Positions 14,587-21,420 of a stretch of 64,000 nucleotides of DNA are shown here, one piece after another. Source of the DNA: Leptospira sp. (lineage in GTDB: Bacteria; Spirochaetota; Leptospiria; Leptospirales; Leptospiraceae); assembly GCA_027531445.1 (NCBI GenBank), contig JAPZRK010000007.1:24320-88319 (forward strand). The letters run 5' to 3'. The translations under genes were made by a program, and so were the position numbers. Below the pieces are notes generated by a model that saw only the letters and a list, made by a program, of their open reading frames with translations, searched no databases and was not told the DNA's origin. Each line of letters starts with the position of its first letter. Within the stretch, counting starts at the first letter, position 1.

Positions 14587-16186
14587 CAGTCACAACTCCT
14601 TTGATGTAACCGGAGAATGTTTTCCTTTTATTTTCAATTAGAAATTGTTTAGCTTTAGAAGGTTGAATTAGTAGTGTTTTTGGAAATGATATATTTGGTT
14701 TGGACAAAAAGGTTTCACTAGGTATATTTTGCACGCCATACGATGTAAAAGAATCCAGTTTCATCGAAGTACGAATTGCATATTCTTTACCGGCCGTTAC
14801 TTGAATTTCAAGTGGGACCTTTAGCCAAATTGCCTCACCTTTCGTTTCAACCAAGATTCCTTGGTATTTATCCTCATTGTCATTTGGTTTGATTATTTCA
14901 TTTCCAATCAATGATTCTATATCTGTCTGTACTTCCAATTTCTCTAATACTTTCGTTTCAGAAATTTTCTCATAAGCCATATTCATGTTATAAGGTGTGA
15001 TTGTGTCAGCTACTTGACGAACAATACTTGCATCGTATTTTTTAAAAGGAGGTGAATCTAACTGAAATGGTTGAGAAACTTCATCGGTCGTATAATATAA
15101 ATTAAATTGATTGAGGAAAATTTGGATGTAACCATCTTCAGTGCCCAATCTCTGATAATCAGTAATTCCAAGAATTTTAGAAGAACTCATGCGTCCAATT
15201 TTTTGTATGCTTCTAATTGTTTCAAGATTTGTATGGTTGGGAATAATTATATAGAGTTCAATACCAAGTTGGCGCAAGTCATTCAAAGCGTTAATGATAT
15301 CGTTTGATTTTTCTTTTGCCGAACCCGACAAAAGTAAAAACAGTTTTCTAGACTTCTTCTTACTGGATCCAAATTTTGATTTTAATGATTGGATCGCACC
15401 TAATAAGACATCACTCTGATTAGATCCTGACCAAGATGTTTCCTCTAGCAAATTTTTTATCTCAGCATGCTCTAAGGTCGGAGGCAGTGTAAGATTTTTA
15501 TTTTTTCGAAGGATAGTAACGCCAAGAAAAAGGTTAGTTTTATCTACGAGAGAGAGTATTGATTTTAGAAAGTCTTTTCTGTAATAAGCATAAGCTCCGT
15601 TTGTATCACAAAAAAAATGTACTTCATAATAATCTTTATCTTCGTTCAAATTTTTTTCGAAATATTTTGGACTTAAAAAGCGAAAGGTTTTTTCTACATG
15701 CATTTCAATCGCAAGTATTGGATTTGTAACTAACTTAGATTGTACTTTTGTTTTTAGCTTATTTTTACAGTTATACACCTCGGTTTGAATGAGTGTCGGT
15801 TTTCCAAAGTCTATGTAATCTTTGGAAATAAAATTACTATCCCATTCAAGACATAGAACATCGTAAATTGGTTCGGAGAGAGTCATGTCATTTTCAATAT
15901 TCTCTTTGGTTAAAAAGCTCTCCGTTAGCAAAGCATCCGTTATCTCTGTTTGGAAATTTCTTTTTAGATAGTGTCTAGTCAATCTAGCGAATTCAGTACC
16001 TGCCTCATTCTTCGTTCCAAATACTGACGTGGGAATTTCGCCTGAGATCGATGCTGGCAAGACAGTGATTTCCTTAGAGAGGAGTAAATTTGGTATCAGA
16101 AAGAAGAAAAAGGCAATTGCATAAATAACATTGTTAAATATGCGCTTTGAATTTCTCACGAATTTTCCATATTTCTTTGATTTCAC
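14570..16186 (-). CDS. Exported hypothetical protein with a vWA-like central domain
   Basis: Signal-peptide-like N-terminus; VHFFCDTNGA (degenerate MIDAS-like), KLFLLLSG and LGIELYII strands. Confidence 0.7.
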   Translation of the reverse strand: MKSKKYGKFVRNSKRIFNNVIYAIAFFFFLIPNLLLSKEITVLPASISGEIPTSVFGTKNEAGTEFARLTRHYLKRNFQTEITDALLTESFLTKENIENDMTLSEPIYDVLCLEWDSNFISKDYIDFGKPTLIQTEVYNCKNKLKTKVQSKLVTNPILAIEMHVEKTFRFLSPKYFEKNLNEDKDYYEVHFFCDTNGAYAYYRKDFLKSILSLVDKTNLFLGVTILRKNKNLTLPPTLEHAEIKNLLEETSWSGSNQSDVLLGAIQSLKSKFGSSKKKSRKLFLLLSGSAKEKSNDIINALNDLRQLGIELYIIIPNHTNLETIRSIQKIGRMSSSKILGITDYQRLGTEDGYIQIFLNQFNLYYTTDEVSQPFQLDSPPFKKYDASIVRQVADTITPYNMNMAYEKISETKVLEKLEVQTDIESLIGNEIIKPNDNEDKYQGILVETKGEAIWLKVPLEIQVTAGKEYAIRTSMKLDSFTSYGVQNIPSETFLSKPNISFPKTLLIQPSKAKQFLIENKRKTFSGYIKGVVTVVKKK

Positions 16187-16233
16187 TTAGTTAGTTTCCT
16201 TTCCACTGACACTCTGAATTCCTTGAGAAAAGA

Positions 16234-16277
16234 TTGACAGCCACATTTCTCGTCTATTAAATCTATCGGAAAGGAGT
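16234..16277 (+). promoter_or_regulatory. Sigma70-type promoter and RBS for lipL21
   Basis: TTGACA 16234-16239, imperfect TATTAAAT -10 region 16255-16262, AGGAG 16273-16277 before ATG 16287. Confidence 0.55.
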
Positions 16278-16286
16278 AGATTCTTT

Positions 16287-16865
16287 ATGAAGAAATCACT
16301 TATCGTAGGTATCTCTATGCTGGCTTTTATCGTAGCATGTGGCTCGAGCGACGGCAGAAGAGATGCGACAACTGTTGGAAAAAACGGTTGGATCTTTGAA
16401 GGTTGGGCATGTGCCCCGGATGCGGCTGCTGGTGCACGTGGCGAAAGTCCTGCTCAGTATTGCAAGGGCAAAGAAAAAGAATTCGACTATCTATACATGA
16501 AATTTTCTGCAAGAGCTTCCGACAAGGCGATCAAACAGAACTCAGTAGCTATGAAACAGTCCACTTGCCGTGAGGCAGCTAGACTACAGGTTGCTGGAGA
16601 CGGACTTAAGAAGATTCTTGGTGAATACCTTGAACAAGCTTCTGGCGTTTCAGATGGTCAATCGACAGGTTCTGTGATTGTATCTGAGTCTAAAGGTCTG
16701 ATCAAAGGTCTTGGGATTTATGACTGCTGTTCACTCAATAACGAAAAGGGTGTATGTGCAGAAGCCGGAGAGCCAGAAACTTGGGAAGAATGTCAGTGTG
16801 TTGGATACATGAAATACGCTGGTGGACAAAAAGCACTAGAAACTAAAGCTCAAGCTGCACAATAG
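16287..16865 (+). CDS. lipL21: Outer membrane lipoprotein LipL21
   Basis: IVAC lipobox; DATTVG..GWIFEGW, KFSARAS, QSTCREAARLQ, ASGVSDG, WEECQC match LipL21 as I recall it. Confidence 0.9.
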   Translation: MKKSLIVGISMLAFIVACGSSDGRRDATTVGKNGWIFEGWACAPDAAAGARGESPAQYCKGKEKEFDYLYMKFSARASDKAIKQNSVAMKQSTCREAARLQVAGDGLKKILGEYLEQASGVSDGQSTGSVIVSESKGLIKGLGIYDCCSLNNEKGVCAEAGEPETWEECQCVGYMKYAGGQKALETKAQAAQ

Positions 16866-16888
16866 TTAGCTTCCTTTTTCTATATAAG

Positions 16889-16917
16889 AACCTCCCAATT
16901 TTTGGGGGGTTTTTTTA
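16889..16917 (+). terminator. Rho-independent terminator of lipL21
   Basis: AACCTCCCAA-ttt-TTGGGGGGTT stem followed by a T run. Confidence 0.85.
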
Positions 16918-16954
16918 TGCCCAGATATCTTGTGAATCGTCTTTAGCTTGGCGT

Positions 16955-17773
16955 GTTATACGTATATCGATAAATTATGAAAAACAGAAGATAAATCGAA
17001 TAAACTAGCGAGAAAATCGAGAAATTAACTAGTGTTTAACTAGAAAGCGTTTTAATGTCAGTTAATACGCAATGCAAGAAGAAAGAATTATGCGAAATGG
17101 ACTTATCTCCTATAATATTTTTAAATTAAAGAGGTTTATAAATGAAGTATCTTATTCTCTTACTCTTATTTGTTGGATGTAGCTCCCAACAAAAATCAAA
17201 AATAACAAATAGTCCCCATGAGAATGATTTTATAGAAATTCGCGAACAAGATAAGTATTCAGGAAAAGAATTACCTAATCCTCCTGATTCTCCTGGATTT
17301 AAATATTCTAAATATGAATCAATAACTCTGGAAGATTTAATTGAAAGAGGAGAGATCGAAGAAAATACAAAAGGAATGAAAATATTCAATTCGAGAAATA
17401 AACTACTTATAAAACTTACTGCTTATCCCACACAAGATCTAAGTCAGGAAGAAGAAGGTAGAAGAAATACATTCGCCTTACTTTTTCAAAATATGAAACC
17501 AATTATTCATATTTATGATTCAAAATTAAAACTTAGATACAAAGATCAAAATTTTCTAATTATATTTCAGTCTCAATTGATACCATACATGAAATCAGAA
17601 CTAAAAATTGGAGATTTGATTGGATTGTATATTGTACATGCTACCTACGATGAATTTGGAAAAATACATATAATCTTAGTCAATGAATTTCATAAATACT
17701 AGATCAGGAATCCTCTTCGTATAACTTCGTCTTACCGCATCGCTTCGAGAAATAGGTAACACTCGTATTATAA
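16955..17773 (+). mobile_element. Putative solitary integron-type gene cassette with degenerate attC-like site
   Basis: GTTATACG 16955-16962 and exact reverse complement CGTATAAC 17718-17725, 15 nt after the ORF stop; then 5 nt, CTTACCGC, later AGGTAAC, 6 nt, ATTATAA (55 nt from 17719). The enclosed ORF is AT-rich. Confidence 0.5.
17142..17702 (+). CDS. AT-rich hypothetical lipoprotein (186 aa)
   Basis: MKYLILLLLFVGC lipobox; GAGG RBS; TATAAT at 17111-17116; three sampled 60-nt lines gave about 20-35% GC versus about 38% in a sampled gyrA line. Confidence 0.85.
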   Translation: MKYLILLLLFVGCSSQQKSKITNSPHENDFIEIREQDKYSGKELPNPPDSPGFKYSKYESITLEDLIERGEIEENTKGMKIFNSRNKLLIKLTAYPTQDLSQEEEGRRNTFALLFQNMKPIIHIYDSKLKLRYKDQNFLIIFQSQLIPYMKSELKIGDLIGLYIVHATYDEFGKIHIILVNEFHKY

Positions 17774-17948
17774 AGACGGCTATTTCTATACCAGGCGATC
17801 TCTTTTTCTCTGCTGAGAATACTGCAGATGGAGACCGTTACCATACATACGGGATTAAAATATTTGCCGGCAGCCCAAGTTTGATCACTGGCTTAAAAAA
17901 ACTGAATTTAATAGTGATCCAAATATTCTCTACTTTGGGCTATTTTAT

Positions 17949-18902
17949 TTAAATGTTAATTGCTAAATTGTATTCGCTTAGCATATCGATAAATTCATTT
18001 AATTTTTCAGTCCGAAGTAATTTTTGTTTTAAATCTTCTGGGAAATTTAAACCCTCTAGATAACGTACAAAGTGTTTTCTAAAAAGGATGAGTGCATATT
18101 GATCTTCACTTGGATAAAATTCTAACATAGAATGTAAATGCTCTAACATAACACTTTTGATTTCATCAAAGCTCAGATTGTATTTCGAAATGGGATTGAA
18201 AATCCAAGGATTCCCAATCGCTTTTCTTCCAATGAGGATTAGATCGACACCATACTGTCTTTTTCTCTCCAATGCATCTTCATAAGAAAAGACATCACCA
18301 TTGCCAAAGATTGGTACCTTTGCAAAGGATTTGATTTCTCCAATTTTATTCCAATCTGCCTTACCGGTATAGCCCATAGATTTGGTTCTACCATGAACGG
18401 AGATAGCAGACACACCAGCATCTTGCAGAACATTGACTGTATCACGGTAATTGTAATTTGATTCATCCCAACCCAACCTAATCTTTGCAGTGACTGGAAC
18501 AGATACTGATTTCTTAATACGCGTGATCATATCTCCAGCGATAGAAAGATTTTTAAGAAGGCCCGCACCCGATCCGCTTCCCGAAACCTTAGCCACAGAA
18601 CAGCCCATGTTTAGATCAATCACGTCGGGTTTCAATTCAATAATGCGTTTGGCTGCAATCTCTACTTTGTTCGGATCGCAGCCAAAAATCTGAAAAAAAA
18701 TCGGCCGTTCCAATTCTTGAAAACGGAACATATCGATTGATCTTTGATTTCCGAGTACAATCTGTTCGGTAGATACAAACTCGGTAAAAGAAAAGGCTGA
18801 TCCTAAACGACGCGTTATCTGTCTATATGGACTATCAGAAATACCAGCCATTGGTGAGAGAGCAACATTGCCTTTGATTTCAACATTGCCAACCCAAACC
18901 AT
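17949..18902 (-). CDS. dusB: tRNA-dihydrouridine synthase (DusB-like)
   Basis: LSPMAGISD, IDLNMGC, VHGRT, GNGD, IGRKAIGNPWIF. Confidence 0.92.
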   Translation of the reverse strand: MVWVGNVEIKGNVALSPMAGISDSPYRQITRRLGSAFSFTEFVSTEQIVLGNQRSIDMFRFQELERPIFFQIFGCDPNKVEIAAKRIIELKPDVIDLNMGCSVAKVSGSGSGAGLLKNLSIAGDMITRIKKSVSVPVTAKIRLGWDESNYNYRDTVNVLQDAGVSAISVHGRTKSMGYTGKADWNKIGEIKSFAKVPIFGNGDVFSYEDALERKRQYGVDLILIGRKAIGNPWIFNPISKYNLSFDEIKSVMLEHLHSMLEFYPSEDQYALILFRKHFVRYLEGLNFPEDLKQKLLRTEKLNEFIDMLSEYNLAINI

Positions 18903-18906
18903 ATTG

Positions 18907-21420
18907 TTACTCCGTATCTTTTACAATTGCAAAATCTTTAACGAAGTCTTCATCTTTCGTATCAACTATCTTCACTCCCATAGCTGACCTTCCTACCAAT
19001 GAAATTTCTTTAGCCGATACGCGAATCGACATGCCAGATTGTGTAATCACTAAAAGTTCATCATCTTCTTTGAGAGAACAGAGACCTACGGCTTTTCCAT
19101 TCTTTTCCCCTACTTTCAGGTAAGTCATACCTTTACCTGCACGACCTTTGGTAGAAAACTCGTCGAAATCGGTTCTCTTTCCAATGCCATTTTCAGAAAT
19201 ACAGAATAATTTTGAATCTGGCTCTACTTTCGTAAGCCCAACGATTTCATCCGTTTCGGAAAGGCGCATAGCCGTCACGCCTGAGGCAGTGCGTCCTTGA
19301 GATCGCAATTCATTCAAATTCATACGAATTGCCAAACCCTCTTTACTTCCAATAAATACATCGAAGCTTTCAGGATTTGAAAGAACGTCGATCAATTCAT
19401 CTCCATCACGAAGACCGATAGCGATAATGCCAGATTTTTTTGTGCTAGAGAATTCATCTAATTGAATCTTCTTAACAAAACCATCTTTTGTTACCATGAG
19501 TAGATAAGATTCATCAAACTGCCTAAATGCAAATAGAGAAGTAATTACTTCATCTTCAGTTAGGTTAATGATTGCCTTTAATGATTTGCCTCGAGCCTCT
19601 TTAGTTGCAATAGGCAATTCATACACTTTCAACAAAAATGCTCTACCTTTATTTGAAAAAAGCATCAGGTGATCGTGAGTCATTGCGACACTTAATTTTT
19701 TAATAAAGTCTTCACGTTTCGTTGAAATACCTTGGATTCCTTTTCCACCGCGTTTTTGACGCCTAAATGTGTCCATAGGTAATCTTTTGATAAACATATC
19801 TTCAGAAATTTGAACTACTACTTCCTCATCTGCTATCAAATCTTCTGCGTTAAATGAAGATGATTCTACAGATTCTAAGCTAATTTCGGTAATACGATTT
19901 GATCCATATGATTCAGCTACTTTTGTTAATTCATCACAAATGATTTGTTTTACACGCTCTGGCTTTGCGAGGATGTCTTCAAGATCCATAATATGAAGCC
20001 TTATCTGTTCTAATTCTTCTATTATTTTTTGAACTTCTAAGGAAGTTAAACGTTGGAGTCTCATTTCCAAGATAGCGTCTGCCTGCATCTCTGACAAAGC
20101 AAATGTGCTTATCAATTTTGCTTGAGCTTCCCTCGGATCCTTCGAAGAACGGATGATTCGAATTACTTCGTCAATGTTATCTAGAGCGATTTTTAATCCC
20201 TCTAAGATGTGAGCTCTTTTTTTGGCTTTATCTAAATCAAACTCTGTACGTTTGATAACGACTTCATTTCTATGTGCGGCATACGCGCTTAAAATTTCTT
20301 TTAATGGAAATATCTTAGGACGATTGTCCAAGATTGCGAGCATCGTAATCCCATAACTCACTTGCAATTGAGTTAATTTGTAGAGTTGATTTAGAATTAC
20401 TTGGGCATTAAAATCCTTTTTGATATGAAGTTCAACGCGGATCCCTTTCCTATCTGATAAATCTAGAATCTCTGTTATTCCTTCGATCACCCTTTCATTG
20501 ACAAGGTCTCCGATCTTCTCTAATAAATTCCGTTTGTTTACTTGATACGGTATTTCATGAATAACGATGATTTCGCGACCCTTGGCGTTATCAATAATTT
20601 CAACTTTAGATCGAATACGAATCGATCCTTTTCCTGTTGAATACGCCTGGTAAAGACCCTCTCCTCCGATAATCGTTCCACCGGTAGGAAAATCTGGCCC
20701 TGGCAGGATCTTCATCAATTCATAAAGTGAAATATCCGGATTTTGAATTACTGCTACGACCGCACTTATTGACTCACGCAGGTTATGTGGAGGTATGTTT
20801 GTTGCCATACCCACAGCAATACCAGTAGAACCGTTTACTAAAATATTTGGAAAATTCGCTGGTAGAACATCCGGTTGTTGGCGAGTATCATCGAAGTTTG
20901 GAGAAAAAGAGACTGTATTCTTTTCTATATCTTTCAATAACTCTTCAGCTAATTTCGTTAGCCGCGCTTCTGTATATCGATAAGCGGCCGCAAAATCACC
21001 ATCCACCGATCCAAAGTTACCTTGACCATCGATGAGCGGCTCTCTCAATGAGAATGTCTGAACCATACGAACCATTGTATCGTACACCGCAGAATCACCA
21101 TGTGGGTGATAGTTACCGATCACTTCCCCAACAATTTTCGCTGATTTAACATATGGTCGATCACTTCGCCATGCTCGTTCATTCATAGCATGGAGTATTC
21201 TTCGGTGAACAGGTTTTAATCCATCTCTAACATCTGGTAATGCTCTACCAACGATTACGCTCATCGCATAATCGAGATAGGCCTCCTTCATCTGGTCTTC
21301 TATCTCCACAGGTATTACGCGAACACCTGCTTTCAAAGCGCCTGCAATATCGGGTCTTCCTGCTAAATTAAGAGCGAGTGTTTTAGTCGATTCGTTTTCT
21401 TGGCCGTTAGTTTCGGTCAT
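18907..21420 (-). CDS. gyrA: DNA gyrase subunit A
   Basis: RALPDVRDGLKPVHRR, HPHGDSAVY, AAYRYTE, GyrA-box QKRGGKG, C-terminal pinwheel repeats. Confidence 0.98.
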   Translation of the reverse strand: MTETNGQENESTKTLALNLAGRPDIAGALKAGVRVIPVEIEDQMKEAYLDYAMSVIVGRALPDVRDGLKPVHRRILHAMNERAWRSDRPYVKSAKIVGEVIGNYHPHGDSAVYDTMVRMVQTFSLREPLIDGQGNFGSVDGDFAAAYRYTEARLTKLAEELLKDIEKNTVSFSPNFDDTRQQPDVLPANFPNILVNGSTGIAVGMATNIPPHNLRESISAVVAVIQNPDISLYELMKILPGPDFPTGGTIIGGEGLYQAYSTGKGSIRIRSKVEIIDNAKGREIIVIHEIPYQVNKRNLLEKIGDLVNERVIEGITEILDLSDRKGIRVELHIKKDFNAQVILNQLYKLTQLQVSYGITMLAILDNRPKIFPLKEILSAYAAHRNEVVIKRTEFDLDKAKKRAHILEGLKIALDNIDEVIRIIRSSKDPREAQAKLISTFALSEMQADAILEMRLQRLTSLEVQKIIEELEQIRLHIMDLEDILAKPERVKQIICDELTKVAESYGSNRITEISLESVESSSFNAEDLIADEEVVVQISEDMFIKRLPMDTFRRQKRGGKGIQGISTKREDFIKKLSVAMTHDHLMLFSNKGRAFLLKVYELPIATKEARGKSLKAIINLTEDEVITSLFAFRQFDESYLLMVTKDGFVKKIQLDEFSSTKKSGIIAIGLRDGDELIDVLSNPESFDVFIGSKEGLAIRMNLNELRSQGRTASGVTAMRLSETDEIVGLTKVEPDSKLFCISENGIGKRTDFDEFSTKGRAGKGMTYLKVGEKNGKAVGLCSLKEDDELLVITQSGMSIRVSAKEISLVGRSAMGVKIVDTKDEDFVKDFAIVKDTE

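Follow-up and report, generated by a model that had tools for sequence, protein, structure and literature searches.

The stretch of Leptospira DNA analysed here (the window; 64 kb, contig C66:24320-88319 within a 134-contig, 4.0-Mb assembly) holds about 1 kb of extra DNA in the spacer between two convergent core genes, lipL21 on the plus strand and dusB on the minus strand. This locus is a small decaying satellite array of gene cassettes that varies between strains, and not the single landing of a cassette at a secondary GTT site that a preliminary description of the window had put forward. It is probably a satellite of a chromosomal integron-like system, without an integrase gene of its own. 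From left to right it would comprise a docking core that resembles attI (17061-17087), an intact lipoprotein cassette that starts at 17088, the 5' arm of an attC recombination site (17717-17747), and debris of a mazE gene and of a RibD_C-like gene. The host is a saprophytic Leptospira, and the species-named homologues of the lipoprotein come from L. levettii, L. kanakyensis, L. paudalimensis and L. ryugenii.

Positions are those of the window unless a contig is named. C numbers (C25, C27, C91, C96, C113) denote other contigs of the window's own genome, G numbers the 41 Leptospira genomes of the genus set, the window's own included, and L100 a metagenome contig; according to the database source, G024 is L. 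ryugenii and G023 is L. paudalimensis. The features of the locus are the following.

16287-16865, plus strand: lipL21, the left core flank, an open reading frame (ORF) of 192 aa with homologues in all congeners searched (about 77-83% nucleotide identity)
16891-16917, plus strand: intrinsic terminator of lipL21, a hairpin (16891-16909) plus a T-run
16955-16962, plus strand: GTTATACG, the 'core site' of the preliminary description, an exact reverse complement of the R'' box, 38 nt past the T-run of the lipL21 terminator
17061-17087, plus strand: attI-like core GTTAATACGCAATGCAAGAAGAAAGAA, which ends at the crossover position (junction matrix, local alignment)
17088-17141, plus strand: very probable 5' end of the cassette and its 54-nt leader, TTATGCGAAATGGACT ... 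AAAGAGG ribosome-binding site (alignment with the L100 cassette start)
17142-17702, plus strand: cassette ORF, a 186-aa lipoprotein with lipobox LFVGC, whose small family was found in saprophytic Leptospira only
17717-17747, plus strand: attC 5' arm, R'' CGTATAAC plus L'' GTCTTACCGC, with the 3' arm missing (arm profiles, covariance model, array alignment)
17748-17769, plus strand: junction stretch of 22 nt with the AGGTAAC that had been read as L'; it pairs with L'' at 7 of 8 positions and has no profile support
17770-17826, plus strand: remnant of a mazE-type antitoxin gene, its first 19 or so codons, with the start ATG now ATA (nucleotide identity to intact mazEF pairs)
17860-17914, plus strand: internal fragment of a RibD_C (dihydrofolate-reductase-like) gene, with 84% and 80% nucleotide identity to two G012 genes
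17949-18902, minus strand: dusB, the right core flank, convergent with lipL21 (PF01207 match)

The lipoprotein cassette and its left end

The lipoprotein ORF had been described as an integron-type gene cassette, and this is borne out by its orthologous copies, which adjoin full attCs in L. ryugenii (G024) and on L100. Positions 17102-17744 are 89% identical at the nucleotide level to a copy in an array on G024:C11, where an ORF with a premature stop is followed by a full attC (the attCs of the array copies are about 165 nt long); the same pair of genomes shares only 77-78% identity in lipL21. On L100, an 80%-identical homologue lies directly behind the full attC of another cassette. One cassette is thus found in differing contexts, namely the G024 array, the L100 array and the lipL21-dusB spacer. 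In G020 and G023 the homologues (60-61% amino acid identity) are ordinary syntenic chromosomal genes without an attC, and since the G024 and L100 copies stand in arrays, the family occurs both as a cassette and as a chromosomal gene. The lipoprotein matched no Pfam or NCBIfam family, and its AlphaFold model, built from 6 sequences, had a predicted local distance difference test (pLDDT) value of 37. The ORF and the attC 5' arm behind it are almost certainly of cassette origin.

The left end was placed by comparison with L100, whose left junction reads ...GTGTAGCCTAGTTCG|TTATACGAAATGGACT, 54 nt, ATG, the attC in front of it ending in G. The window reads ...AAGAAAGAA|TTATGCGAAATGGACT, 54 nt, ATG, with A as the preceding base, and the two cassette starts have 16 nt and the 54-nt leader in common. 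Because the homologous cassette on L100 begins at the equivalent of 17088, the start lies very probably at 17088 and not at G/TT 16955, the earlier placement, which falls 132 nt short of it. The TTATGCG at 17088 has the TTRRRY form of a cassette start and aligns base for base with L100, the base before it being A and not G. The stretch from 16955 to 17087 has no counterpart in any cassette.

A truncated attC and the debris behind it

An attC family with CGTATAAC-TTCG-TCTTACCGC as its 5' arm makes up arrays in this genome (C96, C27, C113) and in related species. The repeats were first reached through weak matches to 17703-17948 on C96, where about eight same-strand copies lie 0.8-1.9 kb apart with ORFs between them, and further attC copies are present on C27, C113, C25 and C91. 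The 5' half reads CG(C/T)ATAAC-TNCG-GCT(G/T)AC(A/C)CGC and the 3' half GTCG(TG/GT)(T/A)AGCC-TANTTC-GTTATGCG; the usual length is 165-180 nt, with a few sites of 76-77 nt. Their arms pair as R''/R' and L''/L', and the L''/L' pairs co-vary (GCCTTACCG/CGGTAAGGC, GGCTTATCG/CGATAAGCC, GACTTAACG/CGTTAAGTC, GGCTGACACG/CGTGTAGCC). The arm alignment has 94.7% of its cells paired, compared with 21-40% for slid partners, five pairs show compensatory changes, with 34 cells altered on both sides, and the covariation is 0.144 against 0.061, a value as high as this being reached in 0 of 500 shuffles. The family therefore keeps its hairpin geometry while the sequence varies and compensatory changes occur, as attC sites do. 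The dispersed Leptospira repeat to which the preliminary description likened the sequence is real and is this attC family, whose copies flank unrelated ORFs on C96, C27, C113, C25 and C91.

The C96 array (C96:22070-29500) has eight attCs, five of them complete and three degenerate or reduced to the 5' part, and is headed by an attI-like core, GCAATACGAGAAGATAGAG|TTATACG. It takes up 8 kb between two convergent core genes, which in most congeners lie 10-100 nt from each other. One of its cassette proteins has a DUF2007 domain, and the others tested have no Pfam family. This satellite was not seen in any congener checked: at the equivalent locus the inserts of G017, G049 and G005 have no attC arms, that of G017 being about 1.5 kb long with one long open frame. 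At another locus, G017:C1:1701000-1754200, an array spanning at least 50 kb contains about 45 attC 3' halves and lies next to a recombinase gene of the same strand; a further cassette array is present in G049. The G017 array holds two identical mazEF cassettes about 33 kb apart.

Solitary cassettes are also found in the window's own genome. A textbook example lies at C91:42026-42810 (minus strand) between efflux-pump and permease genes, with a left TAG|TTAGCC complementary to the R'' GGCTAAC, a 207-aa ORF, a full attC of about 158 nt and a right G|TTAAAT. At C25:24404-25230, a solitary cassette with an antitoxin gene (78 aa) and a PIN-type toxin gene (132 aa) begins with G|TTATACGACATGG and has an attC with an internal deletion at its end. 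The proposal that single cassettes land at secondary sites thus holds for this genome, at C91 and C25, but the lipL21-dusB locus is no example of it.

In the window, R'' and L'' are all that remains of the paired boxes. R'' CGTATAAC lies at 17718-17725, 15 nt past the ORF stop, and CTTACCGC at 17731-17738. We made profiles of the 5' and 3' arms, each trained only on other species. The 5'-arm profile matches 17717-17747 with E = 5e-3 over the whole 4-Mb genome, and all other matches at E<0.05 except C96:29456 fall in cassette arrays or solitary cassettes, while the 3'-arm profile has no match at the locus. A two-arm covariance model of the Leptospira sites, which recovers two held-out short attCs with 55.2 and 41.6 bits, found no whole site at 17715-17775 with filters off and E<=10. 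Folding of the putative attC, the bottom strand included, gave no excess over shuffles on either strand (z of +1.1 and +1.3); single-strand folding has low power here, genuine short attCs giving only z of -0.3 and -1.2. These three nulls stand against the complete 55-nt attC (R''-5-L''...L'-6-R') that had been proposed, and the sequence in question is a 5' arm fused to the debris of other genes.

All the motifs that made up that proposal are present where it put them, AGGTAAC at 17755-17761 and ATTATAA at 17768-17774 among them. The ATTATAA box overlaps the start-codon region of the mazE remnant (ATA for ATG), which accounts for it; the supposed decay of a final GTT to ATT is not supported. 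The remnant is 83-86% identical at the nucleotide level to the mazEF pairs of G016, G046 and G020, and 79% to that of G017, which is a cassette directly behind an attC. Further on, the G012 protein homologous to the RibD_C-like fragment matches PF01872. The region 17749-17948 is one open frame without a start codon that links the MazE N-terminus with the RibD_C-like piece and runs as far as the dusB stop codon, apparently a dead fusion. A three-block likeness between 17746-17795 and the second C96 cassette start (GAGAAAT, GGTAACAC, GACGNCTATTT) was not statistically supported and was dropped. An Rfam scan of 16000-19000 gave only sub-threshold noise near the terminator, Rfam having no attC model.

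With no 3' arm found and mazE and RibD_C fragments in its place, the attC is cut about 31 nt in and the distal array is reduced to debris; the window copy is a truncated member of the family, whose orthologue in G024 has a full attC. Cassette excision requires a folded attC with both arms, and the lipoprotein cassette is therefore very likely unable to leave through its own attC. The earlier suggestion that the cassette may be fixed agrees with this loss of the 3' arm.

The attI-like core, strain variation and the recombinase

What precedes 17088 is no attC 3' arm but a sequence similar to the junction behind the recombinase gene in six species (G052, G049, G044, G024, G017 and G005), which reads ...TTAAC.CAAT.CG, a purine-rich run and GAG|TTAT(G/A)CG. 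We used these six recombinase-adjacent junctions of other species, with 28 nt upstream, to build a matrix, and scored all 949 NTTAT(G/A)CG sites of the genome. The first rank went to C27:17149 (25.4), which adjoins the recombinase gene, the second to C96:22070 (15.3), which heads the C96 array, and the third to 17087 of the window (8.8), the fourth site scoring 0.6; 16955 ranked 192 of 949. The solitary cassettes of C91 and C25 are absent from the 15 top-scoring sites, so the matrix does not merely detect cassette starts. Local alignment of the window with the C96 and C27 junctions gave a score of 35, while shuffles scored 20 ± 2.3 and none of 300 came as high (z about 6.5). On these comparisons, 17061-17087 is quite probably homologous to attI cores. 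A scan of contigs across genomes for the 25-nt core gave no match. Upstream of the core, at 17000-17045, there are three direct repeats ending in AACTAG (ATAAACTAG, ATTAACTAG, TTTAACTAG), which may be accessory sites for the recombinase or may have arisen by chance in AT-rich sequence.

The locus is empty or otherwise filled in the 40 other species of the genus set (all compared genomes are of other species, with lipL21 identities of 77-83%, and none offers an empty site exact to the base), and none of these relatives has the lipoprotein gene there, as had been anticipated. In 22 of the 24 congeners whose spacer was read, it consists of the terminator, a pilZ-like gene and dusB (465-530 nt). 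In G024 and G052 only the shared terminator is left (about 55 nt), the dusB stop lying directly behind the hairpin, and in G001 the spacer has an unrelated 210-aa lipoprotein gene without attC arms. Positions 16866-17101 have no match in the genus set.

Three further assemblies, VYLP01000001.1 and two Logan assemblies, share the form seen in the window. All three carry the exact lipoprotein, and VYLP01000001.1 is colinear and 98.6% identical over 6.5 kb; the spacers of the three differ from that of the window by 0-4 substitutions over up to 1086 nt. A metagenome scan with the lipoprotein returned only VYLP01000001.1, a contig of this short form. A long form is present on a 65.8-kb contig (JGI sample 3300059473), with the order lipL21, 82 aa, 113 aa, 163 aa, 39 aa, identical lipoprotein, dusB. 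The 113-aa product is a PemK toxin whose gene overlaps the 82-aa gene by 14 nt, exactly as in the mazEF cassette, the 163-aa product is a TIR/SEFIR protein, and a 39-aa ORF follows. The long form has 1982 nt more between lipL21 and the lipoprotein gene, and the 247 nt downstream are equal in length. With the 120-nt mazE leader of G017, the lipL21 stop and the mazE ATG should be 342 nt apart after insertion at 17087 and 210 nt apart after insertion at 16955; 346 nt are observed. With remnants of at least two more genes in the window and extra cassettes in a sister assembly, the locus does not record a single landing. Between strains the module differs at 4 of 1022 positions and the flanks at 122 of 11536 (p = 0.047), a marginal difference on which we do not rely.

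The statement that there is no integrase is correct for the neighbourhood, where a TIGR02249 scan found no recombinase within the 64-kb window, but not for the genome, in which an IntI-like recombinase heads an array on C27. No protein of the genome reaches the integron-integrase cut-off of TIGR02249. The best candidate is an IntI/XerA-like tyrosine recombinase gene at C27:15440-16546. The rest of C27:15440-18299 consists of about 600 nt, the junction AAGAAAGAG|TTATGCG, a cassette for a 315-aa lipoprotein and, where the contig ends, a full attC. Within the 600 nt are five GTTAACACGCAC(A/G)TC repeats, which are possible accessory binding sites. Among solved structures, the recombinase is closest to IntI4, the integron integrase of Vibrio (2A3V), with which it aligns in two pieces. 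A recombinase gene that adjoins both attI and array is found at C27, G017 and G049, and not at the window locus. The gene heads same-orientation arrays in G000, G017 and G049 (with attCs downstream in C27, G017 and G049), and only the junction motif lies just downstream of it in G044, G052, G024 and G005; recombinase-adjacent arrays or junction motifs were seen only among these seven genomes.

We propose that the C27 recombinase, or an ancestral equivalent, acts in trans and adds or removes cassettes at the attI-like junction. Later deletions would then have removed the distal part of the array and left the lipoprotein cassette fixed in place, non-excisable through its own attC. The strain difference suggests that the recombinase has acted in trans at the 17087 junction, a view towards which we lean; site-specific insertion in the long form would give junctions of the type core-G|TT...attC-G|TTATGCGAAATGG. 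More tentatively, the saprophytic Leptospira of this clade may have an integron-like system in which a recombinase without the canonical IntI-specific domain serves dispersed attI-like sites in trans, with a main array and with satellites budded into spacers between convergent core genes. The lipL21/dusB spacer would be one of these, some 8.5-10 kb from dnaA: the minus strand beyond dusB carries gyrA, gyrB, recF, dnaN and dnaA up to 27567, and the distance of about 8 kb from oriC given earlier is roughly right if the origin adjoins dnaA.

Several observations weigh against a satellite served in trans. The likeness to attI is short, with 15 of 19 identities to C96 upstream of the junction, and an unanchored nhmmer profile of the attI core misses the window (not in the top 20), although this profile is too weak, the true C27 attI coming out top at only E = 10, and was replaced by the junction-anchored matrix. 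All four assemblies of the short form have A as the crossover base, where eight other such junctions (seven attI-type sites plus L100) have G, and the site at 17087 may be dead. The long form is known from gene calls, and only the coordinates of these underlie the junctions deduced for it. On TIGR02249 the C27 recombinase reaches 191.9 bits (cut-off 265), and on NF040815, the XerA/integron integrase family, 203.7 (cut-off 220). It leaves the IntI-specific model positions 183-235 unmatched and has 36 residues in place of the 63-residue IntI-specific region of IntI4, and thus lacks the additional domain that marks the intI of a complete integron. Orthologues of the gene occur in all 41 genomes of the genus set, several of them without an array downstream, so its role is not proven. 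Given the strong terminator upstream, expression of the lipoprotein must start from a promoter within 16918-17141, where no promoter-like site was found. Finally, this scheme does not account for the exact complementarity of GTTATACG at 16955 to R''. The octamer is rare (188 copies on both strands of the 4 Mb); it may mark the outer boundary of the inserted module or act as an accessory site.

An array fragment could instead have been brought in by homologous or illegitimate recombination or by transformation, the likeness to attI being due to chance or to passive carry-over and the core never a working docking site. We consider this unlikely, even though the right half of the locus is a deletion patchwork, which means that illegitimate events did happen here, the crossover base is A and not G, and the spacer is a general hot spot, occupied by unrelated genes in other species. 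The slightly lower divergence of the module between strains would also fit a recent recombinational exchange. However, the junction coincides exactly with the cassette start and is similar to three kinds of array heads, what sets the sister form apart is whole units of cassette size between the core and the lipoprotein cassette, and a satellite of the same design, that of C96, lies between another pair of convergent core genes.

Insertion of one cassette at a secondary G/TT at 16955, with a complete, slightly decayed attC of about 55-57 nt and ATT at 17768, is very improbable and already largely refuted. In its favour, the chance of finding an exact complement of R'' (17718) such as GTTATACG within about 230 nt and in that orientation is about 0.5%, the spacing of the boxes matches the classical scheme, L'' GTCTTACC pairs with GGTAACAC at 7 of 8 positions, and the true solitary cassette of C91 shows the same left/right logic. 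Exact R''/R' complementarity is nevertheless not expected in this family, since a variable position (columns 4 and 59) is mismatched in 10 of 33 sites. The L100 start, the absence of 16955-17087 from cassettes, the null results for the 3' arm, the mazE origin of ATTATAA and the distances in the long form, which fit insertion at 17087, all speak against it as well. That the lipoprotein gene is a lineage-specific gene unrelated to integrons, with boxes alike by chance, would fit its homologues in ordinary chromosomal contexts (G020, G023), but is refuted by the full attCs beside the ORF in G024 and L100 and by the genome-wide significance of the 5'-arm match, is further opposed by the remnants of a known cassette (mazEF) downstream, and has practically no probability left.

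Relation to known integron elements

Clusters of attC sites and single attC sites that lack an integron integrase are known as CALIN and SALIN, respectively (Cury et al. 2016, PMC4889954; Loot et al., 10.1101/2022.09.11.507474), and it has been proposed that such elements can arise by cassette insertion outside integrons (Loot et al., bioRxiv 10.1101/2022.09.11.507474). A CALIN has at least two attCs and no integrase nearby. The window holds one half attC and does not qualify, the C96 array does, and the long-form sister probably does. The locus shares with these elements that it is chromosomal cassette DNA with no integrase gene nearby, small and without flanking transposable elements. It differs in that its cassette is preceded by an attI-core-like sequence, its only attC is half deleted and would probably escape a search with an attC model, and a sister strain shows cassette turnover at its head. 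Plain insertions at secondary sites that lack such a head are found in this genome at C91 and C25. Compared with a SALIN, the attC is incomplete and its upstream partner is attI-like and not a random GTT; C91 provides a clean SALIN example in the same genome.

The Leptospira arrays resemble the sedentary integrons of Treponema (PMC3607928) and Vibrio in their size, in attCs that are nearly uniform within a species, and in their many toxin-antitoxin cassettes beside cassettes of unknown function, and the recombinase gene is oriented as the cassettes are, as in Treponema. In contrast, the Leptospira recombinase falls below the integron-integrase cut-offs and has no alignable IntI-specific region, the attCs are long (about 165-180 nt) with a few short forms, and extra array heads lie far from the recombinase gene. 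Delta-attI-type cassettes (PMC12901181) likewise involve pieces of attI away from the integrase-proximal position that are able to serve as recombination partners, but those are attI fragments inside class 1/2 plasmid arrays and experimentally functional, whereas the attI-like core of the window heads a separate chromosomal locus and is known from its sequence alone. CALIN, SALIN, integrase-mediated insertion at non-att sites and integrons in Treponema are already established, and a 2013 survey gave Treponema as the sole spirochaete clade with integrons (PMC3607928). A literature search found no paper describing integron arrays in Leptospira. What is new is the host genus, the atypical recombinase, and the attI-like array heads far from the recombinase gene.

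The arrays bear on the origin of those that lack an integrase: two here are headed by attI-like sequences, and one varies by whole cassettes between sister strains, which makes the question of whether such an array is a remnant or an active satellite directly testable. If the in trans scheme is true, CALIN-type arrays can be living docking sites and not dead remnants. In addition, cassette-derived genes fixed in the core genome may be under-counted, because model-based finders would miss half-deleted attCs. Free-living Leptospira carry large cassette reservoirs (this locus, C96, C27 and the 50-kb array of G017), which include toxin-antitoxin and TIR-domain cassettes and probably lipoproteins. 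The lipL21-dusB locus suggests that this free-living Leptospira has several gene-capture sites, and a single recombinase gene at another place in the genome probably serves them all.

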